Virus record (IMG/VR): IMGVR_UViG_3300025133_005019
DNA length: 57,478 nt
Source of the DNA: an uncultured virus (IMG/VR IMGVR_UViG_3300025133_005019)
Taxonomy: Duplodnaviria > Heunggongvirae > Uroviricota > Caudoviricetes
Reading direction: 5' to 3' (one strand)
The notes beneath the pieces were generated by a model. That model searched no databases, had not been told where the DNA came from, and saw only the letters and a program-made list of their open reading frames with translations. The translations under genes and the position numbers were made by a program. Below are positions 205-41,536 of the stretch, piece after piece. The number at the start of each line of letters is the position of its first letter. Positions within the stretch are counted from its first letter, which is position 1.

Positions 205-1407
205 ATGTTCACTGGAATCAATCACACTCGCAAAGAAGAGTTTAGTGTAGTATGGGACTTAGGTCGCAGATGCACCTATGCGTGTAGCTATTGCGGCCCA
301 CATCATAGTAATAAAAATAGTCCTCTAGTTGAGATTGATAAACTTAAACACACATTAGATGGTATCGTTAAATATTCGCAGTTAATGGACTTATATAGAA
401 AAGAGCCTCTTAAATTAGACATTGGATACACGGGCGGCGAACCAACACTACATCCTGCGTTTTTTGAGTTTGTGAGATATGCTAAAGAAACATATCCATT
501 TATAAGGTCCAACATTACAACAAATGGATGTTATTCAGAGAAACAATGCAGAGAAATAATGGACTGTGTAAACAGTACTACACTAAGTTATCACGCAGAA
601 GGCACACCAGAACAAAAGAAATTAGTAATAGCAAATATAAAATTAATGCACGAAAGTGGTTATAATTTTAGAATCAATCATATGTTTCACAAAGATTACT
701 TTGACGAATGTATTGAGTTGGCAGATTGGTTTGACGAGTTAGGTATAACATACACTAGCAGACCTATAGGTGATAGCACCAACAAATCTGATTTATTAGA
801 TGGAACAGCACACGAGTATACAGAAAAACAATTAGAGTATTTTAAAAACCAATGGACGCAGAAGCCTAAACCAAAACCAAAACCAAAAGCACCTTCTGGT
901 GTAATGCATATGCAAACTACAGAAAATCCCAAAGCGAAAACATCACTTGAGACTATTGGCAGACCTTGTTGTAATGGCAAATGTTTAAGTGTTAAAGTTG
1001 ACGATGAATGGACTAAAAGTTTTAGAGTACCAACAACTAATTTTAAAGGCTGGAACTGTATGATTAACTGGGATTTTCTTTTTATTAACAGCGAACTAGA
1101 TGGTGTATGGCATCATCAGACTTGTCAAGTTGACATGGATGGACAAATTGGTCTAATTGGTAAAGCAAGTGACTTTGCTCCAATAATTGATAAGTTACGT
1201 ACAACATTACGTAGCGGAAAAATGCCTGTCATTAGATGTCCTAAGACACACTGCGGATGTGGACTATGTAGTCCTAAAGCATTAAATGATGAAGATGCTA
1301 AAGAGATTTTCGATAGTCGTACTCAGTACCTTGAGCCAGTATTTCAAGAGGACATAAAGGATATTAGCAAAGATGAAACTATAATTGGAATGTTTAAGGA
1401 GATTTAA
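205..1407 (+). CDS. Radical SAM protein with Cys-rich C-terminal domain
   Basis: CTYACSYC motif, TGGEPTLHP, TNG; C-terminal CPKTHCGCGLC; KPKPKPKPK linker. Confidence 0.9.
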   Translation: MFTGINHTRKEEFSVVWDLGRRCTYACSYCGPHHSNKNSPLVEIDKLKHTLDGIVKYSQLMDLYRKEPLKLDIGYTGGEPTLHPAFFEFVRYAKETYPFIRSNITTNGCYSEKQCREIMDCVNSTTLSYHAEGTPEQKKLVIANIKLMHESGYNFRINHMFHKDYFDECIELADWFDELGITYTSRPIGDSTNKSDLLDGTAHEYTEKQLEYFKNQWTQKPKPKPKPKAPSGVMHMQTTENPKAKTSLETIGRPCCNGKCLSVKVDDEWTKSFRVPTTNFKGWNCMINWDFLFINSELDGVWHHQTCQVDMDGQIGLIGKASDFAPIIDKLRTTLRSGKMPVIRCPKTHCGCGLCSPKALNDEDAKEIFDSRTQYLEPVFQEDIKDISKDETIIGMFKEI

Positions 1408-4354: not shown

Positions 4355-5530
4355 ATGACTAATAAAGCAGATTTAAAATGGAGTGCATATGATTTCAAAT
4401 CTATTCCATATGATAATATTACTAGAGTAGGCCAGCGTTCAATGCTGTACCGCGATTTGTTCACAGTGAGCTGGCTATTAGGAAGATTCTGTAACTACAG
4501 ATGTTCATATTGTTGGCCTTATGCTCGTTCGGATCGCAAAGACCATCGTCCTACTAAACTATGTGTCAAAACAATCGACGAAATAAAGAGGCAAGCACGT
4601 GATAACGGTTTTAATAGTTTCCATTTTAGTTTATCTGGTGGCGAACCGACCTTCCATCCTGGATACTTGGATATCATGGAGCATCTCGCGAAAGATGTTG
4701 ATAATACTAATTATACTAGCGTTCATATGACAACTAATATGAGCCGTCCTTTAAAATGGTTCAACAAGTATGTAGAATATGCATCTAAGTTCCATCGAGC
4801 AAGCATTACAGCAAGTCTGCATACTGAGCATGTAAATACACCCGAGAAAATGCAAGAGCTTGCAGATAAGCTTATATTGTGCCAAGAGCATGATGTACAA
4901 GTAACTGTTAATCAAGTAATGGTTCCAGACTGGTTTGAGCGTGATTGGGATAATGCATTATTTTTTCATAACCAAGGTATTAATGTTACACTTAAACCAA
5001 TGAGTGATCCAACAGCAAGCAAAGTTGTAGACGGTTACACAGACAGCATGTTAGAGCGTTTGCATAACGGTATGCCACAGCGTGGCTATACTGAAGAAAA
5101 AGCAGCGTTAGCCAAGCTTGTCGAGCGTCCTAAGCCCACATTTAAAAAGACAAGTGACCCGATATACTGGAAAGAAAACGAAGGTATTCCGCAACATTTT
5201 CAAGTTGAATTTCGTGACCAAGAAGGTAAATTTTGGTATATGGATCAAGCAGAACGTTTTAATGCATTTGGTTTTAATAAATTTGAAGGGTGGGAATGTA
5301 GTTCAGGATATCGTAGTATTATTATTCGTGAACCAGATGGTAGTGTAAAGCGTAGTTATAGCTGTCATGACCAGCCATTGGGTAACGTAGAAACAGGGTT
5401 TAAGCTGTTTGATGGACCTAAAGTGTGTACAACCGGTGCCTGTGTAAGTAGCGCAGACAGCAAGATTCCTAAGCGCAAACCTGGAATTAAACTGCCATTA
5501 TGGCCAGGAGATGAAACTTGGAAAACATAA
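4355..5530 (+). CDS. Radical SAM protein
   Basis: CNYRCSYC, SGGEPTFHP, TTN; C-terminal Cys residues; paralog-like to 205..1407. Confidence 0.9.
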   Translation: MTNKADLKWSAYDFKSIPYDNITRVGQRSMLYRDLFTVSWLLGRFCNYRCSYCWPYARSDRKDHRPTKLCVKTIDEIKRQARDNGFNSFHFSLSGGEPTFHPGYLDIMEHLAKDVDNTNYTSVHMTTNMSRPLKWFNKYVEYASKFHRASITASLHTEHVNTPEKMQELADKLILCQEHDVQVTVNQVMVPDWFERDWDNALFFHNQGINVTLKPMSDPTASKVVDGYTDSMLERLHNGMPQRGYTEEKAALAKLVERPKPTFKKTSDPIYWKENEGIPQHFQVEFRDQEGKFWYMDQAERFNAFGFNKFEGWECSSGYRSIIIREPDGSVKRSYSCHDQPLGNVETGFKLFDGPKVCTTGACVSSADSKIPKRKPGIKLPLWPGDETWKT

Positions 5531-6177
5531 CAGTATGTGGTGTAGATATAGAAATTCCTAATGGTCCGGTTGGAATAAGTGTTAGTGGTGGAGCAGATAG
5601 TGTTGCACTACTATATATTTTATTAAACTATTTCCCGGACAAAGAATTTCATGTTTATACTGCTATTGAAAACTTAGAAGATTTTAGAGTAGCTGCTGGG
5701 CCTTGTGTAAGTACTATTATAGCGAGAATCCAACAGCAAATAGGTTATCGCAATGTGCAACATCATATAACGCAATATAATAATGTTAGCGCCGAATTTA
5801 ACCCATCAACTATATATGAAAAGGCAATTAAAGATATAGATAGAGGAATTATAAGATCTGTGTTTTCTGGTCTCACTGCATCACCACCGTTACATATTGC
5901 AAAAGATTGGACGTCAGATCCTGTAATGTTTAATGAGATGACCTCACGATTGCCCGGTCGGAACTTACCAACTAAAAAACGTAATCGGTATGTGCCGCTG
6001 CGTAATCATGATAAACTAAAAATTGCTGAAATATACGAAACATATGAACTATTAGATTGGTTGTTTCCGTTGACATTTAGTTGTGAAGATACAGACAACC
6101 AACTACACAATTTAAAACATTGTGGTGAATGTTGGTGGTGTAAAGAAAGGGAATGGGCGTTTGGACGGTTAGTTTAA
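5518..6177 (+). CDS. QueC-like PP-loop ATPase
   Basis: VSGGADS; TFSCE...HCGECWWCKEREWAFG. Confidence 0.82.
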   Translation: MENITVCGVDIEIPNGPVGISVSGGADSVALLYILLNYFPDKEFHVYTAIENLEDFRVAAGPCVSTIIARIQQQIGYRNVQHHITQYNNVSAEFNPSTIYEKAIKDIDRGIIRSVFSGLTASPPLHIAKDWTSDPVMFNEMTSRLPGRNLPTKKRNRYVPLRNHDKLKIAEIYETYELLDWLFPLTFSCEDTDNQLHNLKHCGECWWCKEREWAFGRLV

Positions 6178-6957: not shown

Positions 6958-7047
6958 TTAATTTAATAATTTAAAGGCTGCTGCAACGGTAACAATAAAC
7001 CAAATGGCTAACAATATTTGCCCTTGTCTATCATTAAATAAATTCAT
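6958..7047 (-). CDS. 29-aa single-TM peptide
   Basis: MNLFNDRQGQILLAIWFIVTVAAAFKLLN*; GAGGG RBS; first ORF after the boxed promoter. Confidence 0.5.
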   Translation of the reverse strand: MNLFNDRQGQILLAIWFIVTVAAAFKLLN

Positions 7048-7081
7048 ATTAAACACCCTCAACTTTTCTAACTATACATAT

Positions 7082-7110
7082 ATGATAGCACCAATACGTC
7101 TTGATGTCAA
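7082..7110 (-). promoter_or_regulatory. Boxed sigma70 promoter (box inverted)
   Basis: TTGACA-17 bp-TATCAT; spacer reads gcaccaatacgtcttga on +. Confidence 0.8.
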
Positions 7111-7112
7111 GA

Positions 7113-7141
7113 AAAAACGCAAGAAACAATTCTTGCGTTTT
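7113..7141. terminator. Hairpin / probable intrinsic terminator
   Basis: aaaacgcaagaa-acaa-ttcttgcgtttt inverted repeat with A/T tails. Confidence 0.65.
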
Positions 7142-7166
7142 CAATGGGTTATAAAATAATTTAATA

Positions 7167-7835
7167 TTATTTGTAAATTTTTACTGCATTGTATATTCTT
7201 TTGGCTACTTCGATATGACCCTCATTATTGAAATGAAATAGATCCTGATTAAATTTAGAATCAAAGTTATCACTGTTAATTTTAACTATTGTAGTGTCAC
7301 TAGGAACGTGATAACCACGATGATGTACATAATTCCATGCGTCAAGAAATATATAATTAAAGTCGTGTGATTGTAGCATGTGTATAAAGTTATAGTGATT
7401 ATTAACAAAAATTTCAGCATCATACTCTGCATTTGTATGTTCATTTTCAACTAGTTTAAAAAATTCAGAATCTGATTTTGACCATTGCCATTCATGGCTA
7501 CCGGATTTAAACCTAATTAGTTCACCATCATCGTATTCATCTCGCAGGTTTATTCCATGAACAATCTGGACGCCGTCAATGAAATTAGATGTCCAAAATT
7601 CTTTCCTATTAACACATGTATACTGTATTACAATTAATGTGTTTTTGTCTATTTCACCTAGGCGTATTTTTGTAGTAATTGTTCTCCAGATTCTAAAATT
7701 TGATCCACATCCCGCGCCTTGATGATCATATTCACAATCCAACATTTCAGCTAATTTGTCACCATAACAAAAATCTACATTACCACGGTCACTAACGCTA
7801 CACCCTGCAACAACTAATTTATTATATTTTTTCAT
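7167..7835 (-). CDS. SGNH/GDSL-like protein
   Basis: VAGCSVS, GAGCGSN, DLFHFNNEGH. Confidence 0.65.
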   Translation of the reverse strand: MKKYNKLVVAGCSVSDRGNVDFCYGDKLAEMLDCEYDHQGAGCGSNFRIWRTITTKIRLGEIDKNTLIVIQYTCVNRKEFWTSNFIDGVQIVHGINLRDEYDDGELIRFKSGSHEWQWSKSDSEFFKLVENEHTNAEYDAEIFVNNHYNFIHMLQSHDFNYIFLDAWNYVHHRGYHVPSDTTIVKINSDNFDSKFNQDLFHFNNEGHIEVAKRIYNAVKIYK

Positions 7836-7851
7836 ACATGTATTTAGTCAA

Positions 7852-8085
7852 TTAAAAATTACAAACTAATTTTTTAAGACTTACTATTAAGTTAACTATA
7901 GTATAATGTATAATTAAGCCAAATATGCCGACCCAAACTAATGGGCCACTTAATAATAAAAACAATACAAAAAATTTATCTGGGGATAGGCCATATCGTA
8001 TTTCTAGTTTAGTCAACCAAAATAATCCAACGATTGTCCAGGTAATTATAACCGCAGCAAATATTGTAATAAAAAACATATTCAT
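7852..8085 (-). CDS. Small membrane protein
   Basis: Two hydrophobic segments. Confidence 0.5.
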   Translation of the reverse strand: MNMFFITIFAAVIITWTIVGLFWLTKLEIRYGLSPDKFFVLFLLLSGPLVWVGIFGLIIHYTIVNLIVSLKKLVCNF

Positions 8086-8184
8086 TGTATTAATCTATAA
8101 AATTGTTTAATCTTTTTTGATTTAATACAAGGGTGGCGCATTGTAGTACAACCATAACATTTACACATTTTTATATTTCCTTTT

Positions 8185-8490
8185 TTACGTTAATAAAACT
8201 ATTAGGATTATTACAACTAATCCAACTTTAAAGATTATATTTCCTAATTTTTTGGTTTTTTTCGTCACATTTTCCATTATTTCATTTTGTTCTTTAACCA
8301 ATTGACGATGTATAGCACTTGCTTCTTGACGAATAGCTAGTGGTAATTCTTTATTTCTTAAATAATCATTATATTTAAATTCTTCACCACATTTATCATT
8401 CAAATCATCAATTAAAAAAGCAACGGGCGTAAGATTCATTTCTGATATATCATCTAATAATTTCTTAGTATTTCTATAATCATAATTCAT
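8185..8490 (-). CDS. Hypothetical protein with C-terminal TM
   Basis: ORF track; hydrophobic tail. Confidence 0.6.
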   Translation of the reverse strand: MNYDYRNTKKLLDDISEMNLTPVAFLIDDLNDKCGEEFKYNDYLRNKELPLAIRQEASAIHRQLVKEQNEIMENVTKKTKKLGNIIFKVGLVVIILIVLLT

Positions 8491-8493
8491 ATT

Positions 8494-8646
8494 TTAGCCT
8501 GTGTTATTTTTACGTTTACCTTCTTCTAATCGACCGCTGTTTAATTGTTTTTTAATTATGTCATCGATTTCTTTGACCCATTTTGGATTAAGTGCAATAA
8601 TCTCTTCTAATACATTATCCAATTCTTCTAAGCTTCGTTTCTTCAT
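8494..8646 (-). CDS. 50-aa hypothetical protein
   Basis: MKKRSLEELDNVLEEII...; ATGA overlap with upstream stop. Confidence 0.5.
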   Translation of the reverse strand: MKKRSLEELDNVLEEIIALNPKWVKEIDDIIKKQLNSGRLEEGKRKNNTG

Positions 8647-9188
8647 GCTATTTTGTACCATTTAGGTGCTCCTCGTTTAGTCCACTTTGCAAGATGTTGC
8701 TTGTACGTCACATAGTATTGCTTGTAAGAAACAATAGAACATAAGTCTTTGACATCATCAGGCATTGCTGGTGTTGGTTGTGTGAATTTACCATCAGCTA
8801 TATTAGTTGGTGGCGTAGCAAGTACCTTATGTAACTTGCGATAACTTTCATGCGGGTCATTTTTGTTGTAACGATACATAAATTCTGTATTCAATTCAGT
8901 CCACATACGATATAACCACATGTAATTTTCTTTGTTTTTACGAACCCAAATACCACTGGGATGATTAATGTGTGATGCTTTGTATAGAACATGCTCAAGG
9001 TTTGAATCCAAGCGCCAACGTTTAATTTTACGATTGTTTTTAGTTCGATCAGTCCACTCTGTACCATCAAGATATCGATGTGCAGTTGACATTAGTTGTG
9101 CGTATTCAATAATCATCTTACTGCAATGCCTATCGACATGCATTTTTGCACAAACATCTTCATCTTTGTGTAGATAAAATACGTTAAT
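8643..9188 (-). CDS. Pyrimidine-dimer DNA glycosylase (DenV-related), probable ATT start
   Basis: KMIIEYAQLMSTAH, YKASHINHPS, PTPAMPD, KWTKR; in-frame extension (I)NVFYLHKD after GGGAG RBS. Confidence 0.8.
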   Translation of the reverse strand: MNVFYLHKDEDVCAKMHVDRHCSKMIIEYAQLMSTAHRYLDGTEWTDRTKNNRKIKRWRLDSNLEHVLYKASHINHPSGIWVRKNKENYMWLYRMWTELNTEFMYRYNKNDPHESYRKLHKVLATPPTNIADGKFTQPTPAMPDDVKDLCSIVSYKQYYVTYKQHLAKWTKRGAPKWYKIA

Positions 9189-9201
9189 AGTATATCTCCC
9201 T

Positions 9202-9546
9202 TTAAACCTTTAGTTTCTTACCAATTGCATATCCTGCTGCTAATGTACCAGCTGCGATTGCTGCTCGTTTTGTCTTAGTTCGTCCCCGACGCCCACCACG
9301 GTGGTCATCATCATCATCATCATCATCATCACGTCGACGCTTGTCCTGCGCCTTGTCCCGATTGCATGATGCTGCTGAATTAATACCCCATATCAGTGCT
9401 ACAATAAAGGAAATGACATACATTTTCGGTCCACCGTCAAACAGCCATACAAGCACTGCAAAACAAATAAAAGGAACACCCACTAATATAGCCACTCCTA
9501 CAAATACATTGTCATCTATATATTTCGTTGGTTCATTGTTTTTCAT
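9202..9546 (-). CDS. Membrane protein with poly-Asp and basic tail
   Basis: Two TMs, GAT-repeat run, AAGGA RBS. Confidence 0.65.
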   Translation of the reverse strand: MKNNEPTKYIDDNVFVGVAILVGVPFICFAVLVWLFDGGPKMYVISFIVALIWGINSAASCNRDKAQDKRRRDDDDDDDDDHRGGRRGRTKTKRAAIAAGTLAAGYAIGKKLKV

Positions 9547-9575
9547 TATTGTATTCCTTTAATTAACTTACTTAT

Positions 9576-9604
9576 ACTATACAGTAAGACGTATTGGTTG
9601 TCAA
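9576..9604 (-). promoter_or_regulatory. Boxed sigma70 promoter
   Basis: TTGACA-17-TATAGT; spacer cagtaagacgtattggt; -35 overlaps the IOR stop codon. Confidence 0.8.
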
Positions 9605-12600
9605 CCCCAAGTTTGTTTTATTAATTCATCAATTTCACTTAATTCACTAACTACCTGATCATATTCAGCATTAGATAAGTTTGCATTATATTTCATTATT
9701 TTTGCTATTGTATTATCTCGCAATTCTTTTTCTTGCTGACGTGATTTTGACATCATTAACGGATCAAATGCAGTATCACGTAGCACCTTGCCGTGTTGTA
9801 ACAATTTAAATATATTAATTATCCACCAGCCTGATACTTTTGACTTTTTCTTGTTCTTTCGATTCCATGGCATATTTAAATACAAATAAACATTTGCTAG
9901 ATCTGCCATCGTATCAGTTTTATGCGTATTATAATAGTCTACCCATAATCTAGCAACTTCATATTCATCTTTATATGCCATTACGTTAAATAAGTTATGC
10001 ATTACTACATCTGAATATTCGGTCCTATTCAAAGATTTATCTATTAGGATTGCCTCTTGAACCAATTTCTTATACTCATCTGCATATTTGACAGATTTAT
10101 ACTTCTTTAATATTTCATATCTATATAAGAACGGATCATCAGTATGTTGCTTTTCACTAATATGATAATCTATTTCACTTCTTAGTTCGTCTATTGCATA
10201 TGCACGACCACAGTGCCATGCATATTGATTATCATCCACTGCTGCACCATTAATTTCAATTGCTTTTAACATACTTTCTTCAGTAATAGGCAGCCATCCC
10301 ATTTGATATGCATAACCATACATAAATGATGTTCCTGTTATCGACGATCCCAATAACTTATTGACAATTTTCTTGACTGGGATAGGAGCTAATGTGCGCG
10401 AGTTAGACTTTGCAATATCGAGACTCAATGTATCATCAAATTTCCAATCACGATTTGTAATTAGTTCTGACGATGAACTTGAATTGGTATTAAAAACAAT
10501 ATTTGTATGGTCACCCATTAATTGTACACTTGTTGTATTAGTAACAACTTGTGGATCAATGCCTATAATTAAATTAGCAGTGCCTTTATATATTTGACCC
10601 ATTGCATGTTCGCCTATGCTGATTTCACTTGTCACAGCACCGTATTTCTGTGCCAATCCAGTTGAATCAATTGCACTAACTTTATGTCCGTCTAATGAAG
10701 CTGCTACTGCTAACATCTGACTAGAGCTAACAATACCAGTTCCACCAATGCCACTTAATAGAACATTATATCTCTTGAAATTTGTATCTAGTTCTGGTTT
10801 AGGGATATCAAATGACAACCGATCTTTAAGATCATACTGTTCAACATAACCATCAACTGTCATAAATGATGGACAAAATCCTTTCAAGCAAGATAAATCT
10901 ATATTACAATTATCGTAATCTATAGTTCTTTTTGTTCCAAGCGGAGTATCTAGTGATACTATACTTAGGCAAGTAGACTTAGTGCTACAATCACCGCACC
11001 CTACGCATATTTCTGGATTAATAAATGGCTTAGTGTCTATACCTTCTTGCAAACCTCGTTTTATTTTTCGGCGTCTTTCTGTGGCACATTGCTTTTCGTG
11101 AATAATTACAGAAACACCTTTTTTATGTTTAAATTCTTCTTGTACTTCCATTAATGAATCCAGTGGTTCGGTACGAATTGCATGTGTAAACTTATCAGAC
11201 ACAATGCAGACATCATTGATGTCAATACCTTCAGCTAACACTTGATTCACTACCATATCAACTGTCAACTTACCGTCAACAGGTTGGCCGCCAGTCATTG
11301 CCACTGCATCATTGTACAATATTTTATATGTCATATTGGCGCCAACGGCAACGGCTTGTCTAATTGCTAATAATCCTGAATGGAAATAAGTACCATCACC
11401 CAAGTTAACAAATACATGTTCCGCTGAATCATATAAATGTTGCCCGCACCACATTGATCCTTCTCCGCCCATTGGAGAAAGAGATACATGATCTCTATCT
11501 TGCATTCCTCGTACCATAATATGGCAACCAACACCAGCTAGTCCAACTGAACCTTCAGGTAGCTTTGTACCAACATTATGAGGACAACCTGAACAGAAGT
11601 GAGGGACACGGCCTTCACTAGTTATGTTTGATGCTACAGGAATTTTTACTGCTTTACGTAATACAGTTTCATTAAACACTTCTGTTATTTTTACTGCATC
11701 AAAATCTAATTCTTGTGGGAAATGGGATTTGCCTACTAACGGGGTAGTAATCCCCATATCATATAATTTTGCCTTTAATTGATCTTCTACAAACCCTCGT
11801 TTTTCTTCAATAACAATAATCTTATCTCTATCTTTCGCGAAATCTATTAAGTCTTGGGTAATAGGATAAGACATGCCTACTTTCATAATATCAATGCCGT
11901 ATGCTTCTATGTCAATGCCATTAACATTTATTGCATTAATTAGATCAACATAATTTTTGCCAACTGCATAAACTGCAATCTTACCTTTTTTAGATTTATG
12001 GGTGACTTCATTGAATGGATTAAGTTTAACAAATTCTTCTATTGCTGGAAATTTTTGTTGGATCATTCGTGCTTCTTGAGAATCACCGTCATCTGGCCAT
12101 CTAACTGAAACATCAAACTCTTTTTCTGGAATAGTAGGAGCCCATGCATCTAAATTTACATCGACTGACTGATAAGCATCTGCAATATTACTTACTATCT
12201 TTACTGAACACCAAAGGCCACTGTAACGTGATAATGCTACAGCGTTAATACCTAAACGTAATATATCCTCTACACCAGACGGTGTGATGCTTGGAATACT
12301 CCAACTGGCTAATGTTGAGCAAGTTTCATGTGGCAATGCTGAACTTTTTTTAGGATGATCATCACCAGCAAACATAACAACACCACCTGTAGCAGAGGTG
12401 CCAAATAAATTACAATGTCGTAACTGGTCACCTGCTCTATCTACACCAGGCCCCTTGGCGTACCAAAATGCAAATGTTCCATCATATAACTTATCACCAA
12501 CTAGTCCAGCGTTTTGCGTACCTTGTACCATTCCCGCAGCAAGATCTTCGTTAACTCCAGGTATGAATGTTATACCAGCAGCATCTGTTATGTGTTTCTG

Positions 12601-12786
12601 TTTAACAAATTCAACATCAACGCCGCCCAATGGACTGCCTCTATAACCAGAAACAAACCCGGCGGTATTAAGACCGTTGCGTTTATCTAGTTCTTTCTGC
12701 AACAACGCAAGTTTTAGTATTGACTGTGAGCCAGACATAACGAATACACCATCATTCGATAAATATCTATTCTCTAATTCGCCCAT
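9601..12786 (-). CDS. ior: Indolepyruvate:ferredoxin oxidoreductase family protein, fused alpha/beta
   Basis: SGYRGSPLGG, NEDLAA, KGPGVDR, FCSGCPHN, TPP motif GDGTYFHSG, CVGCGDC/CLKGFCPSF, GIGGTG, GLAQK, YKDEYEVARL. Confidence 0.93.
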   Translation of the reverse strand: MGELENRYLSNDGVFVMSGSQSILKLALLQKELDKRNGLNTAGFVSGYRGSPLGGVDVEFVKQKHITDAAGITFIPGVNEDLAAGMVQGTQNAGLVGDKLYDGTFAFWYAKGPGVDRAGDQLRHCNLFGTSATGGVVMFAGDDHPKKSSALPHETCSTLASWSIPSITPSGVEDILRLGINAVALSRYSGLWCSVKIVSNIADAYQSVDVNLDAWAPTIPEKEFDVSVRWPDDGDSQEARMIQQKFPAIEEFVKLNPFNEVTHKSKKGKIAVYAVGKNYVDLINAINVNGIDIEAYGIDIMKVGMSYPITQDLIDFAKDRDKIIVIEEKRGFVEDQLKAKLYDMGITTPLVGKSHFPQELDFDAVKITEVFNETVLRKAVKIPVASNITSEGRVPHFCSGCPHNVGTKLPEGSVGLAGVGCHIMVRGMQDRDHVSLSPMGGEGSMWCGQHLYDSAEHVFVNLGDGTYFHSGLLAIRQAVAVGANMTYKILYNDAVAMTGGQPVDGKLTVDMVVNQVLAEGIDINDVCIVSDKFTHAIRTEPLDSLMEVQEEFKHKKGVSVIIHEKQCATERRRKIKRGLQEGIDTKPFINPEICVGCGDCSTKSTCLSIVSLDTPLGTKRTIDYDNCNIDLSCLKGFCPSFMTVDGYVEQYDLKDRLSFDIPKPELDTNFKRYNVLLSGIGGTGIVSSSQMLAVAASLDGHKVSAIDSTGLAQKYGAVTSEISIGEHAMGQIYKGTANLIIGIDPQVVTNTTSVQLMGDHTNIVFNTNSSSSSELITNRDWKFDDTLSLDIAKSNSRTLAPIPVKKIVNKLLGSSITGTSFMYGYAYQMGWLPITEESMLKAIEINGAAVDDNQYAWHCGRAYAIDELRSEIDYHISEKQHTDDPFLYRYEILKKYKSVKYADEYKKLVQEAILIDKSLNRTEYSDVVMHNLFNVMAYKDEYEVARLWVDYYNTHKTDTMADLANVYLYLNMPWNRKNKKKSKVSGWWIINIFKLLQHGKVLRDTAFDPLMMSKSRQQEKELRDNTIAKIMKYNANLSNAEYDQVVSELSEIDELIKQTWG

Positions 12787-12803
12787 GTATTTTCTCCTAC
12801 ATT

Positions 12804-13220
12804 TTATGGTGCCGCGTCCCTTTCATCCCACGGTCCCATTTCATAACAAGGCTGGGGCATTATATCTTTATATATGATAAGAACTTCAGTTCCGGTTGCT
12901 GTGGTTTTTGAAGTTATTGTTTCGACCCCTTGTTCCCTTGGCTTACCAAAACATCTATTGTTGCTTTGGCCTGGATATCTATAACGCGGATTGTGCGCTA
13001 GAAAATCAATTAATTCTTTAAGATGTTCTTCTTCTGTTTTTATAATATATGAATCATGACATGATGCTGGTATATTAAAGTCAAAAGTGTTAAAATGTTC
13101 CTTTGTATAGTTACTCTTTAATAAACACATCTTTAAAATATTATTGGATTCAGATGCATCAGCCGCTGGTAAAAAGCCAAGCGTGGTTAAAATAACTAAC
13201 ATCATTACTACATCCCGCAT
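12804..13220 (-). CDS. Hypothetical exported protein
   Basis: Signal-peptide-like N-terminus; 4 Cys. Confidence 0.65.
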   Translation of the reverse strand: MRDVVMMLVILTTLGFLPAADASESNNILKMCLLKSNYTKEHFNTFDFNIPASCHDSYIIKTEEEHLKELIDFLAHNPRYRYPGQSNNRCFGKPREQGVETITSKTTATGTEVLIIYKDIMPQPCYEMGPWDERDAAP

Positions 13221-13224
13221 AATT

Positions 13225-13725
13225 TTATGTCTCTACTTTATTTACTGTGATTCCAGACTTGTGCAAGAAATCCGTGCCAGCTGTACTGCGATAATCATGT
13301 TTATAGTATACATTGGTTATACCACTTTGATAAATTAATTTAGCACAGTTTATACATGGCGAGTGTGTACAAAATAATGTAGCATCCTTTCCACTTTCAT
13401 GGCTACCTGCAAGTTTAGTTAGTGCATTAGCTTCTGCATGCAATACTTCTGGTTTAGTTACAAGTCGATAGCGATTACCTTTCTCATCTTGATATGGCCA
13501 TTGATCCTCAACTGTTGAGGTATTTAACCAACATCCTGCATCATTGTCCATATACTCTCTATGTTCGCAATCATTGTCCCAACCCATTGGCATGCCATTA
13601 TAGCCAATACTAATAATACGATTATCCTTAATAACGATGCTGCCTACTTTTAGTCGTTCAGCATATGATAGTTCTGCAAATCGCTCAGCTACATCCATAA
13701 ATGCGTGTATATATTTTTCTTTCAT
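13225..13725 (-). CDS. cd: dCMP deaminase
   Basis: IGYNG, LHAEANA, HSPCINC. Confidence 0.93.
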   Translation of the reverse strand: MKEKYIHAFMDVAERFAELSYAERLKVGSIVIKDNRIISIGYNGMPMGWDNDCEHREYMDNDAGCWLNTSTVEDQWPYQDEKGNRYRLVTKPEVLHAEANALTKLAGSHESGKDATLFCTHSPCINCAKLIYQSGITNVYYKHDYRSTAGTDFLHKSGITVNKVET

Positions 13726-14078
13726 TTTAGGCTCTTGACTTTTCTAGGCGTATATCGACTGGTCCGTTTACAATGTCAGCAGCAATTGCCTTAGCATCAT
13801 CTACCATTTTTAAAACCTCTTGAACCGTTTCTCTTGGTAAATCCCCAAATGTTGCCTGAAACGTGAAGTCATAGTTTTTATCGTATTCGATATCCACATC
13901 AAGCCTCTGAATTATATATTCAATCTGAGGATTGGACTTCTGAAGTTGATATCTCAAGCGATGAATTTCAGTGGTCTTCTCAAGCAAAACCTTTGCCTTT
14001 TTATGCAGCTCGTCTATACTATGATACATCTTCATGATCTCCCTTATCCATAAATGCGTGTATATATTTTTCTTTCAT
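13693..14078. repeat. 33-bp perfect direct repeat (13693-13725 and 14046-14078)
   Basis: atccataaatgcgtgtatatatttttctttcat at both positions. Confidence 0.92.
13727..14035 (-). CDS. Hypothetical protein between the 33-bp repeats
   Basis: 102 aa ORF with AAGGGAG RBS. Confidence 0.7.
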   Translation of the reverse strand: MKMYHSIDELHKKAKVLLEKTTEIHRLRYQLQKSNPQIEYIIQRLDVDIEYDKNYDFTFQATFGDLPRETVQEVLKMVDDAKAIAADIVNGPVDIRLEKSRA

Positions 14079-14524
14079 ATTAGATTTTGATTACTTGGTG
14101 TTAGGTGGTCGCCATTCTCGATGGTCTTAATATTATGGCAATTGTGACATAATGTCTGTAAATTGGATGGATCATTGTTTTCATGATTACCATCAATATG
14201 GTCCACGCTTAATGAACTACGTACCATTGAATTAAATAATTTTGGGTCACTTTTTTTGTATTTGTTAACCCTAGGCAGTTTAGCAGGTTGAAAATTACAT
14301 TCTTCACAATAGTCTAATCGATGTTGACTGTATACTTTTTCTGCCGTTGCTAATCCACCAAACTGTTTAAAGTTGCGTTGGTGTTCATCACAATAGTCCT
14401 TCTCACCTGGCCCCTTCCATAATGTAAGATGCTTATCACATCCAGGAACCTTGCACTTATTTGATAATGCTATACGCATTTCATTTGTGCTTTTGCGTTG
14501 ACGGTCTGTAGCTTCGCGGATCAT
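14075..14524 (-). CDS. HNH endonuclease
   Basis: CEEC...SVDHIDGNHENNDPSNLQTLCHNCHNIKT. Confidence 0.88.
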   Translation of the reverse strand: MIREATDRQRKSTNEMRIALSNKCKVPGCDKHLTLWKGPGEKDYCDEHQRNFKQFGGLATAEKVYSQHRLDYCEECNFQPAKLPRVNKYKKSDPKLFNSMVRSSLSVDHIDGNHENNDPSNLQTLCHNCHNIKTIENGDHLTPSNQNLI

Positions 14525-15711
14525 GCTACCTCCATTGTTTTAAAATTATAACTCTCTGCAAATGATGGTAAATCAAATTCGAAGTTATTTTGTGCAAGGA
14601 CTCGGGCAATCCATGGTGGAGCAACTTTTGTTTGGTTACATCGATAAGTTTTACCATCAATTAATCGACCCGCAGCCTTTTCAGCGTCTACATATGTTTG
14701 ATATGCATCCTGTACAAGCTTATGTTTTTTACTGCCTACTACCCATGTATTTTCAGTAACACGGCTCATAATTTTTGCAATAGCGTTAAGATAGTCGTCT
14801 GTAATTTGAATACCATCATTTAAACATTGACGTATAAACACACTCATATTATCTATTTCTAGTGATACAAATGGCTTGTCTGCATTTGTAATTGAATGGT
14901 AATACATAACACGTTCAAAAATCTCAACTGGGAAATTACGATTAAAGACTTCTGTCATACGTGACCACGCGCCAGCATTCTTTTCATCACCAAACTTTTC
15001 ATCAGTGGCAAAGTATGAATACTTCTCAAAATAGCTCTGCATAGTAAAGCATCTGATATTCCAAAAATCTTCACAGTTATCATGACGCATACCAGCAACA
15101 TACTGTTTATACAAATCAATATTATCCAATTGTTTGCTAGTTTTACCACTATTAAATTCTACAAATCGACGTCGAATTGCTGCTCGATCATCTCCAGGAT
15201 ATTCATCAACTGGAATTAAGATATCTTCAGGATCAGCCCCAAAGCCAAATGTACCAATAATCCATAATGCTATCGCAGTATGTTGGCCATCCCATGCAAC
15301 TTGTCGATCTATTAAGCCGTCTTTGCGATGACTGTCGCGGTATGTACGGATACGGTTAACATAGCTTGGATCAAATTCACCAACAATGTTTAGTAAATTT
15401 TCTCGATCTGGCCAACGTTGCATAGTATCGTTAATGTCAAGAACAATACTTGAATAATATTCAATCTTACCCATGCCTACCATGTCTTGGATCATATCAC
15501 TGTATGTTTCATAACCCATAGCAGCAACCATTCCTTGGGCAAGTGATTCAAACATTGTTGGTAATATCGGGTCTTTTTGGTACAATTCTTGTAATCGTTC
15601 ACCAATGGTGACAAATTTATCTTCATCACTGTGATATGATTCATTGATACGATTAGCATATTCATCAACTAACTTAATCATTGGGGCTGCCTTCTTTTTA
15701 GTTGCTGTCAC
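14521..15711 (-). CDS. ParB/Srx-like (DGQH) domain protein
   Basis: MQRWPD...AWDGQHT...FVEFN; GTG start; ATGA-coupled to the HNH gene. Confidence 0.6.
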   Translation of the reverse strand: MTATKKKAAPMIKLVDEYANRINESYHSDEDKFVTIGERLQELYQKDPILPTMFESLAQGMVAAMGYETYSDMIQDMVGMGKIEYYSSIVLDINDTMQRWPDRENLLNIVGEFDPSYVNRIRTYRDSHRKDGLIDRQVAWDGQHTAIALWIIGTFGFGADPEDILIPVDEYPGDDRAAIRRRFVEFNSGKTSKQLDNIDLYKQYVAGMRHDNCEDFWNIRCFTMQSYFEKYSYFATDEKFGDEKNAGAWSRMTEVFNRNFPVEIFERVMYYHSITNADKPFVSLEIDNMSVFIRQCLNDGIQITDDYLNAIAKIMSRVTENTWVVGSKKHKLVQDAYQTYVDAEKAAGRLIDGKTYRCNQTKVAPPWIARVLAQNNFEFDLPSFAESYNFKTMEVA

Positions 15712-15716
15712 AATTA

Positions 15717-16136
15717 TTATCCCTCTTTGATTTCCTGAAATTCGCCATCGCGTACAATTGCCATAACGCTACCACCTGAACAACGAACATAGTTACGACC
15801 TCCATCAATCATATTGCCATTTTCAAACTTTTTATAGCTATGATGGCCTTCACTATATTCAAATAAATTATCATCATTCAGTACCATACCGAATGTAAAA
15901 TCTTCAATAATGTCAGCATTTGTAATCATGGTGTCAAATGTTATTGGATCTTTATATAATCCAAAATAACGATTGCCAAATTTTGGGTGTGGTGTCGCTC
16001 TGAAAAATACATCAATATGAACATCTGATATGGCTATATCAGTAGTACATACATATTTTACAGGTACTCCGTCCTTTTTAGAAAAATGCTTGACCACTTT
16101 ATTGTCATCAAATTTTGGATTATGTTTAATATTCAT
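15717..16136 (-). CDS. Hypothetical phage protein
   Basis: PHPKFGNRYFG, MIDGGRNY. Confidence 0.7.
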   Translation of the reverse strand: MNIKHNPKFDDNKVVKHFSKKDGVPVKYVCTTDIAISDVHIDVFFRATPHPKFGNRYFGLYKDPITFDTMITNADIIEDFTFGMVLNDDNLFEYSEGHHSYKKFENGNMIDGGRNYVRCSGGSVMAIVRDGEFQEIKEG

Positions 16137-16497: not shown

Positions 16498-16555
16498 GTT
16501 GTTTGCTCCTAAATCTCAGTTCGTACATAAATTATAACACACGGAAATAACTATG

Positions 16556-16630
16556 TCAAATAAATCCTATCCAATGCGTAACATCATCACATGGGTCATC
16601 AACACGACTCCAGCCATTTTCGTTTTGCAT
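16556..16630 (-). CDS. 24-aa peptide
   Basis: MQNENGWSRVDDPCDDVTHWIGFI*; AAGGTG RBS; directly after a boxed promoter. Confidence 0.5.
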   Translation of the reverse strand: MQNENGWSRVDDPCDDVTHWIGFI

Positions 16631-17870: not shown

Positions 17871-19262
17871 TTAATATTTCATATTTTCATCGATTTTATA
17901 GTTACGGGTACCATTATTTGCGACAAGATTGAATAATGTAGCCACCCCAAAGCCAGTAGCACCGTAAGGAACAATTTCAGTACCTGATTCACTCCATGCC
18001 ATACCAGCAATATCTAAGTGCGCCCAACTACGACCCTCATCAACAAATCGATATAAAAACTCTGCGGCTGTGGTTGAGCCACCATATGGTCCACCAATAT
18101 TTTGCATATCAGCAATCTTAGAATCAATCATCTTATTCCAGTTTTTGCCCATTGGCATCCGCCAAAATTCTTCACCTAGCTTTGATCCATCTGCTTGAAT
18201 GGTTTCGCTTAATTCACTAGAGTTAGTAAATAGTCCTGCCATTTCATGACCAAGCGATACTAGTATAGCACCAGTTAAAGTAGCTACGTCAATAATTACA
18301 TGCGGGTCGTAGGTTTGCACATATGTTAAAATATCAGCTAACACTAGTCGGCCTTCTGCATCTGTATTAAGATTTTCAACCGTTTGTCCACTCATTGATG
18401 TAACAATATCACCAGGCTTAATAGCTTTACCATCAGGCATGTTTTCAACTAATCCAACAATCCCAACCACATTGTGGTTTACTTTGTTGCTGCCAATAGC
18501 ATGCATTGCTCCAACTACTGCGGCACTCCCGCCCATATCAAACTTCATATCCGCCATGCCTTTGCCTGGCTTTAGTGAAATACCACCAGAATCAAATGTA
18601 ACACCTTTACCTACTAAAGCAATGGGTTTGGCATCTGCATCAGGATCATTCATGTATTCCATCACAACAACAAAGCTATCTTTTTCACTACCTTGTCCTA
18701 CACTTAGAAGCAAATCAAAACCCAGGGTTTCTAATTGTGATTGGTGTAAAATTTTAACAGTTACACCTACTGCATTTAATGCTGACTCGATTCGATATGC
18801 ATAGTTTTGCGGGAATAGTTTATTGCCGGGTTCAGAAACAAGAGTGCGAGCTAGCTCTATGCTTTCACTTAGTAGATTATTTTTTAATCCATGAATAGCT
18901 AATTGTGTTGATTTTTTATCTGTCTTATATTTGTTAAATTCATAGTTTGCAAGCCGAGCACCATCAGCTAGATGTTCATTTCCTAGTTCAAAATAGATAT
19001 TGTCTACATCTTTGCGTTTACGATATTCTTTAACAAGCTGCCCGCCAAGTTTTAACCATTCATTTGGCGTATCCTCACTCATTATAATAACACGTACAAA
19101 ATCGATATCAGCGCCAGGGTATTGCACTTCGACATCTTTTGTTTTTTTAATATAATTGCGATTACAAACTTCGTCTAACTTCTTCTTTAGAGATTTGTTT
19201 AATTTTTTATATGCGGCGCTGTTATGTTCAACAATTACAACACTTTTGCTGTTATAATCCAT
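17871..19262 (-). CDS. pepA: M17 leucyl aminopeptidase
   Basis: VGKGVTFDSGG, MKFDMGG, NTDAEGRL, ATLTGA, HLDIAG. Confidence 0.95.
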   Translation of the reverse strand: MDYNSKSVVIVEHNSAAYKKLNKSLKKKLDEVCNRNYIKKTKDVEVQYPGADIDFVRVIIMSEDTPNEWLKLGGQLVKEYRKRKDVDNIYFELGNEHLADGARLANYEFNKYKTDKKSTQLAIHGLKNNLLSESIELARTLVSEPGNKLFPQNYAYRIESALNAVGVTVKILHQSQLETLGFDLLLSVGQGSEKDSFVVVMEYMNDPDADAKPIALVGKGVTFDSGGISLKPGKGMADMKFDMGGSAAVVGAMHAIGSNKVNHNVVGIVGLVENMPDGKAIKPGDIVTSMSGQTVENLNTDAEGRLVLADILTYVQTYDPHVIIDVATLTGAILVSLGHEMAGLFTNSSELSETIQADGSKLGEEFWRMPMGKNWNKMIDSKIADMQNIGGPYGGSTTAAEFLYRFVDEGRSWAHLDIAGMAWSESGTEIVPYGATGFGVATLFNLVANNGTRNYKIDENMKY

Positions 19263-19488
19263 AATTGTATCCTTTGTTTTTAATTTCAGTTGGGTCAATA
19301 GTAAATTCCAAACCAGCCATTTTAGCAACAAACAGGTTCTTTTTTTCTTTATGGAAATGCAAAACTACATCCTGCATGTTAACACGTATAACATCTTGTC
19401 GTTGGTCTACAATGATACCGTCGATTTTCTTGCCATTGTCAGTACAGGTTACTGTAATTTCTTGCATATCCGAGATATAATATCCCAT
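19252..19488 (-). CDS. Small hypothetical protein
   Basis: GGAG RBS; overlaps pepA start. Confidence 0.65.
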   Translation of the reverse strand: MGYYISDMQEITVTCTDNGKKIDGIIVDQRQDVIRVNMQDVVLHFHKEKKNLFVAKMAGLEFTIDPTEIKNKGYNYGL

Positions 19489-28872: not shown

Positions 28873-29146
28873 TTGTTTTCTCCATATTAATTTTCACTAC
28901 AACGGGGTCTAAGATGGTCCCAATGTCTTTTGATTGTAACATATCCCTTAGTTTAAAAGAGAATTGTAATAGTTCATCATGGGTTTTGAATTTGTCTAAG
29001 AATTGTATATTCTCACCACGCCTGAGCATTTTAATATAATCTATAAAACCTGAATCAACCCATTGATAAGGTGAATAAAGTCCCATTGTAAAATATTCCA
29101 GTGAACTAATTTTTTCGTCATTTGTCATTTTATTAATCACCATCAC
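28865..29146 (-). CDS. Hypothetical protein
   Basis: Operon-packed ORF. Confidence 0.5.
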
Positions 29147-29483
29147 CAGGTCTTTCGTCTAGTAACTTGATTTTATTACCACCAGCATATCCTAACACTG
29201 GATTCATTTTATCTGAATCTGGCAGCGGATCTTTCCGTGCTGTGATTACTGGCCAAAGTCTACTATATTTGTCATTAAAGTCGACCCATGACGCCCCTTC
29301 TTTAGTTGTGTCAGGTAAAATAGCACCTGTCGGGCATTCAGGCTCGCAAACACCACAATCAATACATTCATTTGGACGAATTACTAATGTATTTGCTCCT
29401 TCATAAAAGCAGTCTACTGGACAAACTTCTACACAATCGGTATATTTGCATTTAATGCATGCATCATTAACTATATATGTCAT
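29133..29483 (-). CDS. fdxA: FdxA-type dicluster ferredoxin
   Basis: [21 protein letters not shown]...[12 protein letters not shown]. Confidence 0.95.
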
Positions 29484-32298: not shown

Positions 32299-32327
32299 AT
32301 TATAAGGTAAGACGTATTGAATGTCAA
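32299..32327 (-). promoter_or_regulatory. Boxed sigma70 promoter
   Basis: TTGACA-17-TATAAT; spacer aggtaagacgtattgaa. Confidence 0.8.
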
Positions 32328-34640: not shown

Positions 34641-34669
34641 ATGATACAGTAAGACGTATTGGTTGTCAA
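34641..34669 (-). promoter_or_regulatory. Boxed sigma70 promoter
   Basis: TTGACA-17-TATCAT; spacer cagtaagacgtattggt. Confidence 0.85.
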
Positions 34670-34682
34670 CCTTTTTTTAGAT

Positions 34683-35654
34683 TTATTTTAACCTATCATT
34701 TGCTATTTGTTCTGCGGCATGCTGTATTGGCATTCCTTCATCTGATGCTATATTAAATATGCTATCTATTCGTACAGTTAGTTCGTGCGTTAATGCATCC
34801 TTATAATCTTTTTTCTCAAAATCTAATGCGGCGGCGACCACACCACCACAGTTAGCAACGAAATCTGGAACATACTTGATGCCCATATTGTGTGCCGTGA
34901 TAATATCGTTACGAGTGCCAAATACGTTATTTGCACTACCACATACATATTTTGATTTGATTAATTGGAGTGATGATTCATTTAGCGCACCACCTAATGC
35001 ACAAGGAACATAAAATTCGCCTTGTAGCAATGCAGTTTCTTCTATATGAGTAACACCTTCTAAACTATCGACAAATGGATCATAAGCTTCTATTTTACCA
35101 TCTAGCATTTTGATTAAATGTTTGCCAACTTTGCCAAGTCCCTGTACTGCAAATGTCTGATCTTTTATTTCTAGTCCATCTTGCTTGAGCAATGTTTTAA
35201 TACTAGTATGTACTCCTAATGCTGTTGGTAGACTAGTATCTAATGTTATGCCTGTCACATATGATGTTGTATCATTCACTCTATATAGATCGTCAACTCC
35301 TGTACCGACATCACCAGCACATATATATGCGCCGTCGTGAAGATTTACGGCTTTACCAAGCATTTGATATGCTAAGTCTCTGTCTTTAATTTTGAGTGCA
35401 TTTATAGTAGTTTTGGCGCCACCATGATTTAATCCTGATGCCGCATTTTTGAATGTCATGCCTTCACTAAGGCGTAATGCGTCTGTTAGTTGTGATTCGA
35501 AAGTTTCATAGTTATAACATCTAATTCCGCCAATGGCTGGTCCTAATTTTGTGCTATGTATAGCAATTATTGCATCCAAGCCCGACTCAAGATGTTCAAC
35601 ATGTAATACTCTTTCGTATCCATCAATAGACATTTCGGTTCGTTTAATTAACAT
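34683..35654 (-). CDS. Glu/Leu/Phe/Val amino-acid dehydrogenase
   Basis: IAIHSTKLGPAIGGIR, LSEGMTFKNA, GGAK, QGLGKVG, PCALG, GSANN, PDFVANCGG. Confidence 0.93.
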   Translation of the reverse strand: MLIKRTEMSIDGYERVLHVEHLESGLDAIIAIHSTKLGPAIGGIRCYNYETFESQLTDALRLSEGMTFKNAASGLNHGGAKTTINALKIKDRDLAYQMLGKAVNLHDGAYICAGDVGTGVDDLYRVNDTTSYVTGITLDTSLPTALGVHTSIKTLLKQDGLEIKDQTFAVQGLGKVGKHLIKMLDGKIEAYDPFVDSLEGVTHIEETALLQGEFYVPCALGGALNESSLQLIKSKYVCGSANNVFGTRNDIITAHNMGIKYVPDFVANCGGVVAAALDFEKKDYKDALTHELTVRIDSIFNIASDEGMPIQHAAEQIANDRLK

Positions 35655-38215: not shown

Positions 38216-39225
38216 AATTTTCTTTGACGCATTTTTCTTGGCACACATCGATGTTATGCATATTATCTTCTATCCATTTAAATATGGGACCATTAATTAT
38301 TTCTTCCATAGAATAATATTTGATATTGTGATATTTTTTATCTATGCCCGAATCTCCCCACAATTTAGTTATGTGTTTTTGAACTCCATACCAACAACAT
38401 GGATATACATATCCCTTTGCAGAGATATATATGTTACCCATAGTCTTGTGGAAATTGTCGCCACCATTTCCTACCTGTGCTTTACACTTAGGCTCTATTG
38501 TGAATGTTTTTTTAATTTCTGTTTTTGGTTGCACTTCGTTCATAATCTTCTGGTATTTCTATATTTTTTATTTTTTCGTCTTCGCCTCTAACGCTTTGTA
38601 CAATATGAAATCTGTTGAAGTTTTCACTTTTGGAATAACTTTTAACTTCATTCACCTGATGTTTATTCCAATTGAACACTATAAACTGCCATTTCGCTCT
38701 GCCACCAGCAGATATATAAGCACGCCAGTTTTCTCGTAGTCTACTCCATTCAACATTCTTTCTATATAAATGGTTCGTATCTTCTAATCCATCAATTCCC
38801 CACACAACTATCAATCGTTCATTCATACTTGCTGATAACTCTCCGAGTTCTTTCCAAAATTCGATTGAGCGAATGCCACCGTTTGTTGCAATATGCATTT
38901 TTATATTCGGTGCTAGTGTGTCCATATATTTTATAATTTCTATTATATCTGGATTAATAACAGGTTCATCAACATTGCCACAATAATGTATATCATCTAA
39001 ATGTTTCCAACGACCCTTTACAAACGTTTCTTTAATTTGTTTTAAAGATATGTAAGTATCGTTAAGCGATAAATCAAAACATGCAATCTCATCCCATCTA
39101 TTTTCGGACTTCATGTCACTTATCTCTTTTATTTTGAATCTTTCACATTGAGGACATGCGGCATTACAATAGTTTGTAAGTTCTATTTGTATTCTACCAA
39201 TGTCTGATTCCTGTGCCCAAGTCAT
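38199..39225 (-). CDS. Radical SAM + SPASM protein split into two overlapping frames (38512..39225 and 38199..38543)
   Basis: CNAACPQC, TNG, GIDGLEDTNHLYR in the first frame; GYVYPCCW...CQEKC in the second. Confidence 0.8.
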
Positions 39226-41507: not shown

Positions 41508-41536
41508 ATGATACAGTAAGACGTATTGGTTGTCAA
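41508..41536 (-). promoter_or_regulatory. Boxed sigma70 promoter
   Basis: TTGACA-17-TATCAT; identical to the 34641 copy. Confidence 0.85.

Follow-up and report, generated by a model that had tools for sequence, protein, structure and literature searches.

Introduction

Among the electrons of lowest potential that cells produce are those released by 2-oxoacid:ferredoxin oxidoreductases, large enzymes rich in clusters. In archaea and anaerobes, the indolepyruvate oxidoreductase (IOR) consists of two separate subunits, IorA and IorB, and such two-subunit enzymes function without any DUF6537 domain. The IORs of Pseudomonadota (NF009589 / PRK13030) are fused: one chain carries the PYR and PP domains, the cluster cysteines, the IorB/POR part and DUF6537 in this order, the ferredoxin-like cysteines lying between the IorA-like and the IorB/POR parts. 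The domain order of pyruvate:ferredoxin oxidoreductase (PFOR) differs from that of the fused IORs. The present work deals with a gene of the fused type on the minus strand (9601..12786) of IMG/VR virus record IMGVR_UViG_3300025133_005019, a stretch of 57,478 nucleotides from an uncultured virus of the Caudoviricetes, hereafter called the window. Our reading, to which we give a probability of roughly 0.68, is that this phage-borne IOR has lost its C-terminal tail to a repeated promoter box while its catalytic body is still under selection.

A search of the open full-text literature for phage-borne IOR, for DUF6537 and for K04090 in viruses returned no relevant paper, although subscription journals and supplementary tables of auxiliary metabolic genes may list some. 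A term search of a 2026 review on PFOR diversity found neither the word phage nor the word virus. Among cellular members of the IOR family, EdcC of Sphingomonas sp. KC8 has been studied: in this aerobe it decarboxylates a 2-oxoacid oxidatively and forms a CoA ester (PMC12507874).

A single-chain IOR with intact catalytic motifs

The open reading frame (ORF) encodes 1061 residues and ends in ...IDELIKQTWG. The initial annotation, made from the sequence alone, had taken the product for a thiamine pyrophosphate (TPP) and Fe-S enzyme with intact motifs, and this description holds: the protein scores 1020.6 bits against NCBIfam NF009589 (cut-off 816), with residues 3-1053 covering profile positions 17-1129 of 1170, and every invariant column of a 27-sequence alignment is kept. 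The gene and its domains are as follows.

9601..12786, minus strand: coding sequence of the fused IorA-IorB-DUF6537 2-oxoacid:ferredoxin oxidoreductase (P0001, 1061 aa), from NF009589 and Pfam TPP_enzyme_C, POR and DUF6537
11104..11532, minus strand: TPP-binding (PP) domain, residues 419-561, with GDG...N at 463-492 (Pfam TPP_enzyme_C)
10219..10746, minus strand: POR / IorB-like (gamma) domain, residues 681-856 (PF01558, 60 bits against a cut-off of 27.4)
9646..10125, minus strand: DUF6537 helical domain, residues 888-1047 (PF20169 positions 7-175 of 203, the last 28 being absent)

The invariant columns that are kept include C398, C401, C421 and C567, the TPP-site residues G463, D464, G465 and N492, and seven further cysteines (C594, C597, C600, C606, C627, C633 and C638). 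The CSGCPHN cluster motif stands at residues 398-404, just upstream of the TPP-binding domain, and the POR/IorB domain is fused after the IorA part, as the fused IOR family requires. By these family matches, the window gene encodes a 2-oxoacid:ferredoxin oxidoreductase made as one chain, a phage-borne member of the fused indolepyruvate-oxidoreductase family. Its homology to the IOR of archaea and anaerobes is evident over residues 46-613 for IorA (TIGR03336, E 1e-46, score 159 against a cut-off of 651) and residues 673-846 for IorB (TIGR03334, E 7e-16, score 59 against a cut-off of 206), but those proteins are separate subunits devoid of DUF6537, whereas the window protein is fused.

The structure prediction proposed in the initial annotation points the same way. 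The AlphaFold2 (AF2) model of the protein (predicted local distance difference test score, pLDDT, 76.8; predicted template-modelling score, pTM, 0.73) has as its top Foldseek matches the PFOR chains 6cin and 1b0p, with E 6e-16 to about 1e-15 over ~940 aligned columns; the superfamily fold is the same, but identity is 9-10% and the TM score only 0.33-0.39. The DUF6537 region is helical in the structure models, and a search of the PDB by sequence returned gamma-subunit chains only (9bt4_E, 3on3_A).

Relatives of the window IOR

Whereas a single-protein scan of IMG/VR gave no relatives, an alignment-based scan gave 9 loci, five of which (L003-L007) encode IORs 46-51% identical to that of the window. 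In 185,579 species genomes at least 800 stretches match a search pattern; 796 of these 800 encode IOR relatives, and the best 80 of the 796 are 34-41% identical to the window IOR. Compared with the fused IORs of Pseudomonadota, the window protein is phage-encoded, ~100-140 residues shorter and without their short N-terminal extension, since the match begins at profile position 17.

A FastTree tree of 48 rows was built from the window protein, 22 of 120 database proteins and 25 of 89 loci; L010 (36% identity) was left out because its frame lacked the CSGCPHN motif on which extraction relied. The window IOR is sister to 16 phage or metagenome rows in one clade with a Shimodaira-Hasegawa-like support of 100. 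On this placement it belongs to a clade borne by marine T4-like, probably jumbo, phages, in which the database proteins of the phage-borne group (P0003-P0019) measure 1082-1117 aa. The IORs of L003-L007 fall in the same clade, share the short N-terminus and come from T4-like low-GC phages. Two of these loci, L005 and L006, are flanked by genes for T4 gp15, tail sheath, dNMP kinase, NUDIX and radical S-adenosylmethionine (SAM) proteins. The neighbour genes of the five loci differ from those of the window, and the 138-aa ORF upstream of the window IOR is unrelated to the 138-aa ORF upstream of the IOR of L005 (E 39). Directly after the IOR of L006 stand a VOC/glyoxalase-fold gene and a fumarylacetoacetate-hydrolase-family gene (11351-12542), which hints at a link of IOR to the breakdown of aromatic 2-oxoacids. 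Two further loci, L008 and L009, group with bacteria in the tree (a Caenimonas protein and an Azospirillum locus), and their contigs may be prophage flanks or misclassified.

Loss of a strictly conserved tail

According to the initial annotation, bacterial fused IORs continue with an IRG(Y/F)GHVK segment at the point where the window protein ends, and this proved correct. Tails were scored relative to a YKDEYEV-type anchor, the motif being taken in the loci as [RK]G[YF][GA]. From 89 loci (L003-L091), 13 without a usable anchor and 3 that ran off the contig were set aside, and the motif is present in all the 73 that remained (73/73), each with a complete 3' end; it is likewise present in 117/117 anchored proteins among 119 database homologues, 2 of which had no anchor. 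Cellular homologues do not, then, end where the window protein ends; had they done so, it would have counted against the proposal of the initial annotation. In the loci the motif starts 111-132 residues past the anchor (median 124), and the window protein ends 124 residues past it; it stops exactly at the position where the RG[YF]G motif (IRGYGHxK) of its homologues starts, so that the C-terminus is trimmed as had been supposed.

What is missing is more than the motif. From motif start to protein end the 73 loci count 20-47 residues, and all homologues with the motif have at least 16 further residues after it. The ends of 36 homologues read P(E/D)xIRG(Y/F)GH(I/V)K; another ~13 residues come after this in the nearest group, and up to ~45 in bacteria. 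The window IOR has neither the RG[YF]G nor the 16-43 following residues of the Pseudomonadota enzymes. Aligned with fused IORs, as had been suggested, the window protein is homologous up to ...ELIK (against ...ENIR), after which only the homologues go on with the motif; its final QTWG is unrelated. DUF6537 with its terminal RG[YF]G is thus incomplete. The other phage copies (L003-L007) keep IRG[YF][GA][HYF]IK and ~13 residues, which the window IOR does not, so that trimming does not characterize the viral clade as a whole, and the description of the gene as streamlined was not borne out. As the sister group and the bacterial outgroup both possess the motif, its loss on the window branch is the parsimonious reading.

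The tail was not found elsewhere in the window, either by a six-frame motif scan or by tblastn with five homologue tails (best E 0.29), the tblastn matches at 9610-9732 being the IOR gene's own end. Read-through of the TGA codon was considered as a rescue and rejected, since only 7 codons are gained before a TAG and the tail is not restored. The truncation is genuine by every comparison made here and is so far peculiar to a single phage population.

The divergence extends upstream of the stop codon:

9604..9786, minus strand: diverged last 61 residues (1001-1061), with 6/14 family-conserved columns kept

Of the columns conserved to 90% or more among the other 26 sequences, 231/262 (88%) are kept in residues 1-1000 of the window protein and only 6/14 (43%) in residues 1001-1061 (Fisher p = 1.3e-4). 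The degraded positions G1004D, G1011M and E1015S lie in the LRGT and FDPxGY...ER motifs.

Is the clipped enzyme still working?

Contigs from three DNA runs (X5, X6 and X8) carry 15 single-nucleotide polymorphisms (SNPs) in the coding sequence, 11 synonymous and 4 nonsynonymous, which gives a ratio of nonsynonymous to synonymous polymorphism per site (pN/pS) of ~0.10 (683 synonymous and 2500 nonsynonymous sites; binomial p = 2.5e-5). Because of this value and of the invariant residues that are kept, we consider it fairly probable that the clipped protein is functional. The six full-length variants in its 90% cluster all have 1061 aa; as they are only 1-2 residues apart, they provide no independent evolutionary test. 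One of them carries G1061D, with TTGACA left intact. The lost tail would be part of the accessory DUF6537, and since two-subunit IORs work without this domain, its loss need not stop catalysis, even if DUF6537 could be relevant to stability or partner binding in the fused form.

Several observations weigh against this reading. The lost motif is kept by every homologue examined, and such strict conservation is normally a mark of importance. When the intact DUF6537 of L005, a phage relative, was modelled by itself (212 aa, pLDDT 85.7), its RG[YF]G motif came out as a turn that joins short helices, at pLDDT 84-92. The prediction is thus that the tail belongs to the ordered structure of a helical domain and is not a floppy appendage. 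The pN/pS value rests on 15 SNPs taken from contigs, where rare variants are hidden, the truncated form is confined to one population, and an old signal of purifying selection could survive a recent truncation. As to the placement in the phage clade, the branch of the window IOR is long (0.89 against a median of 0.22), and the tree program warns on long branches.

These points bear on a second possibility, namely that the truncation disables or cripples the enzyme and that the gene is a recently damaged passenger which has not had time to decay. We regard this as unlikely. It is favoured by the loss of a motif present in all the scored loci and proteins, by the few conserved columns left in the last 61 residues, by the near-clonal nature of the single population that carries the truncated form and by the confidently ordered tail of the intact relative. 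On the other hand, the frame of 1061 codons is open and without any other lesion, 88% of the conserved columns persist in residues 1-1000 despite 46-49% identity to the nearest relatives, and in runs from three studies synonymous changes account for 11 of the 15 SNPs. The TIGR03336 and TIGR03334 profiles, for their part, match residues 46-613 and 673-846 only, in line with two-subunit IORs that work without DUF6537. Finally, the preceding 60 residues have diverged, which suggests that the truncation is not very recent.

A fold search with the DUF6537 model of L005 against 48,161 chains returned designed helical repeats and generic helical matches; the best Z of 8.5 is below the chance level for helical bundles, so this search gave no functional lead for the domain.

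A repeated promoter box at the stop codon

The initial annotation placed the stop codon inside the -35 hexamer of a promoter, which is where it lies, and the promoter matches 11/12 consensus positions.

9603..9601, minus strand: TGA stop codon within the -35 hexamer (TTGACA at 9604..9599)
9569..9606, minus strand: repeated promoter box, with -35 TTGACA at 9604-9599, spacer box at 9597-9586 and -10 TATAGT at 9581-9576
34641..34669, minus strand: second, near-identical copy of the box, directly after the amino-acid dehydrogenase gene
41508..41536, minus strand: third, near-identical copy, after the DNA polymerase gene
9202..9546, minus strand: downstream gene behind the promoter, 114 aa, no family match, with its ATG at 9546

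The promoter has a 17-nt spacer and stands 30 nt before the ATG at 9546. The 114-aa protein encoded there is hydrophobic in its N-terminal half and contains nine consecutive aspartates as well as a stretch rich in Arg and Gly.

Loose promoter-like matches are not above chance in 7000-16000 (46 against 46.2 +/- 6.6 in shuffles), but strong sites (at least 11/12) are clearly non-random. Twelve lie on the minus strand and 4 on the plus strand, all four of the latter within genes; 10/12 of the former are intergenic, in a window where non-coding DNA amounts to 4068 of 57478 bases (7%) by the ORF list. The distance to the following start codon is 30-37 nt for seven of these ten, and 85, 136 and 177 nt for the rest. 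The 12-mer of the spacer occurs 14 times at no more than 2 mismatches, against 3.8 +/- 2.2 expected, a count that none of 100 shuffles reaches, and five copies in the window are exact. A sigma-70-like promoter family with a common spacer box can be recognized on the minus strand at 7082-7110, 9576-9604, 32299-32327, 34641-34669, 40701-40729 and 41508-41536. The spacer is an 18-base near-palindrome in two copies (40729 and 7110), which suggests a putative binding site (operator) for a dimeric regulator.

Three copies of the box are near-identical over ~55 nt, leader included, and in the copy after the polymerase gene the likeness extends to the start codon. Outside the window, the 23-base core of the box has five further exact matches on IMG/VR contigs, where likeness begins at TTGACA; one of them (L096) looks as if it came from behind the polymerase gene of this phage or of one nearly identical to it. 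Many other contigs in the three DNA runs match 9569-9606 only and then diverge. The box was not found in the other 90 loci examined, the phage IOR loci L003-L007 included. The metatranscriptome run X20, the only RNA run, covered 9000-9235 only.

On its 5' side, the IOR gene seems to be served by a more distant promoter:

16531..16559, minus strand: nearest strong upstream promoter, 12/12 match (strong-site scan)

Because no equally strong site (at least 11/12) occurs between it and the IOR gene, this promoter is likely the start of a transcription unit that contains the dCMP deaminase gene and ends at the IOR gene. An HNH endonuclease gene (14075-14524, minus strand) lies within this unit.

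Origin of the truncation

The box runs from the stop codon to shortly beyond the -10 hexamer (9606-9569), and the boundary of the repeat in other copies and contigs falls at 9604-9606, so that the stop codon lies inside the repeat. Since the stop is within a repeated box and no remnant of the tail follows, we infer a cassette replacement: a copy of the box, promoter plus leader, would have taken the place of the original 3' end of the IOR gene, after which the last ~60 residues would have drifted while the catalytic body stayed under purifying selection. The initial annotation had spoken of integration into phage regulatory sequence, and the finding that the stop is supplied by a box which also follows the dehydrogenase and polymerase genes agrees with it.

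One could argue instead for an ordinary nonsense or deletion mutation as the cause of the tail loss, with the promoter simply adjoining the gene and the box uninvolved. A TGA stop within the -35 TTGACA is indeed found at 4/10 intergenic strong promoters (9604, 24569, 32327 and 40729), which makes the arrangement a habit of this genome, a general way of packing genes, and not a peculiarity of the IOR gene; in addition, the family alignment still holds to ...ELIK, four residues before the stop. Such an origin is unlikely, however, given that the box fills 9569-9606 from the stop onwards, that resemblance to the polymerase copy reaches as far as the start codon, that the boundary at 9604-9606 recurs in other contigs and that no remnant of the at least 20 missing codons is seen in any frame. 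The tail was thus probably replaced by the box and not lost via point mutation.

A phage gene in a phage setting

The IOR gene lies amid T4-like phage genes on the same strand; besides a T4-type DNA polymerase, the window encodes a clamp loader, dCMP deaminase, dNMP kinase, MazG, head protease and endolysin. Myophages of 349-490 kb, among them Phosso, Atu_ph07 and Vibrio phage 2.275.O, have polymerases 44-51% identical to that of the window. The nearest record, with a 100% identical IOR, is 61.8 kb long and rated 17% complete, which suggests a phage genome of roughly 360 kb. No tRNA genes were found in the window. Immediately upstream of the IOR gene is the following ORF:

12804..13220, minus strand: upstream gene, 138 aa, no family match, with its TAG stop over the IOR ribosome-binding site

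The ribosome-binding site of the IOR gene (AGGAG) overlaps this TAG, and the gap between the two frames is 17 nt. The GC content of the IOR gene is 36.1% overall and 23.3% at third codon positions (GC3), in agreement with the polymerase and clamp-loader genes of the phage; across the nine other genes of the window that were compared, GC3 is 23-32%. Flanked by phage genes and phage-like in composition, the gene is what one expects of an auxiliary metabolic gene. Contigs of the three DNA runs, which come from different studies (2022-2025), bridge its 3' junction (9601), and those of X6 and X8 span the whole gene with its 5' end, with 9-11 differences in ~4.1 kb.

One candidate phage copy was examined and rejected. 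'Acinetobacter phage MD-2021a' (L002, CAKLQF020000001.1, 221731-237039 of a 378-kb record) looks like bacterial chromosome, and its IOR was not counted as phage because of the bacterial-type genes around it: acetyl-CoA carboxylase, enoyl-CoA hydratase, isovaleryl-CoA dehydrogenase, a LysR regulator and an MFS transporter.

That bacterial DNA was wrongly joined to a phage contig, by host contamination or chimeric assembly, is scarcely credible: the family is overwhelmingly bacterial, with the relatives counted above in genomes of Pseudomonadota and others, the one named 'phage' record whose copy is full-length looks bacterial and three unannotated fecal 'Bacteriophage sp.' contigs give partial matches only (23-25% identity), but the gene has same-strand phage genes on both sides, translational coupling upstream and a phage box downstream, a phage-like GC3, its nearest relatives on other phage contigs and junctions bridged with few differences by independent runs, three at the 3' and two at the 5' end. 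The initial annotation, which had argued against host contamination, finds support in the phage neighbours, the overlapping ribosome-binding site, the GC3 and the phage clade alike.

A possible role in the infected cell

By analogy with its family, the enzyme would decarboxylate a 2-oxoacid oxidatively by means of TPP and Fe-S clusters, yielding acyl-CoA, CO2 and reduced ferredoxin; our best guess for the substrate is an aryl-pyruvate or a branched-chain 2-oxoacid. Several window genes could stand on either side of such a reaction.

34683..35654, minus strand: Glu/Leu/Phe/Val-family amino-acid dehydrogenase, candidate supplier of the 2-oxoacid (family match)
29133..29483, minus strand: FdxA-type ferredoxin, candidate electron acceptor (NF045490, 148 bits against a cut-off of 135; Pfam Fer4 and DUF3470)
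205..1407, plus strand: radical-SAM enzyme, possible consumer of reduced ferredoxin (family match)
4355..5530, plus strand: radical-SAM enzyme, possible consumer of reduced ferredoxin (family match)
38512..39225, minus strand: radical-SAM enzyme, possible consumer of reduced ferredoxin (PHROG match; Pfam score below cut-off)

The best NCBIfam match of the dehydrogenase is tryptophan dehydrogenase ScyB, at 165 bits and below the cut-off of 600. In the most economical pathway, built from genes that the phage itself carries, this enzyme would supply the oxoacid to the IOR, and FdxA would carry low-potential electrons from it, for example to the three radical-SAM enzymes. The presence of these genes in one window suggests a route from amino acid to oxoacid, then to acyl-CoA and reduced FdxA, and on to the radical-SAM enzymes. 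The link among the genes consists only in their presence in this 57-kb window, where they lie 17-22 kb apart. Five viral IOR records were searched for the dehydrogenase and FdxA, and three dehydrogenase-bearing and two box-bearing records for IOR; none was found in these fragments, which are 1-20% complete.

It is tempting to go one step further and to see in the dehydrogenase, the clipped IOR, FdxA and the radical-SAM enzymes a self-contained phage supply of low-potential electrons, for which the loss of the tail was adaptive. In that case the aminopeptidase and the SbmA/BacA-type importer encoded in the window (see below) may feed the dehydrogenase with an aromatic or branched-chain amino acid, and without its tail the enzyme would escape a host-type partner or control mediated by DUF6537. 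We hold this extension to be doubtful.

The radical-SAM genes belong to three pairs, in each of which the second gene encodes a protein with a QueC-like C-terminal stretch (205-2206 and 4355-6177 on the plus strand, 38512-39860 on the minus strand). A QueD/PTPS-like gene lies at 29480-29986, and the radical-SAM enzymes adjoin QueC/QueD/QueE-like genes; the radical-SAM/QueC-like pairs may represent a nucleobase-modification system in three paralogous copies. Further auxiliary genes, an unusual set that lies wholly on the minus strand, are found at 17871-19331, 19549-20586, 28159-28872, 35686-36402 and 36389-37189, their products being an M17 leucyl aminopeptidase, an SbmA/BacA-type transporter, an FTR1 iron permease, a CMP-KDO synthetase-like cytidylyltransferase and a DAHP/KDO8P synthase family enzyme.

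Implications

A whole clade of fused IORs thus exists in marine T4-like phages, one member of which is accompanied by its own ferredoxin and amino-acid dehydrogenase. The present case would illustrate how a promoter cassette that occurs in several copies can reshape the 3' end of a gene, and the clipped IOR amounts to a deletion experiment made by nature on DUF6537, an uncharacterised domain, and on its invariant RG[YF]G motif. Should the enzyme be active, large phages would rewire the amino-acid breakdown and the redox supply of their hosts with enzymes of their own.

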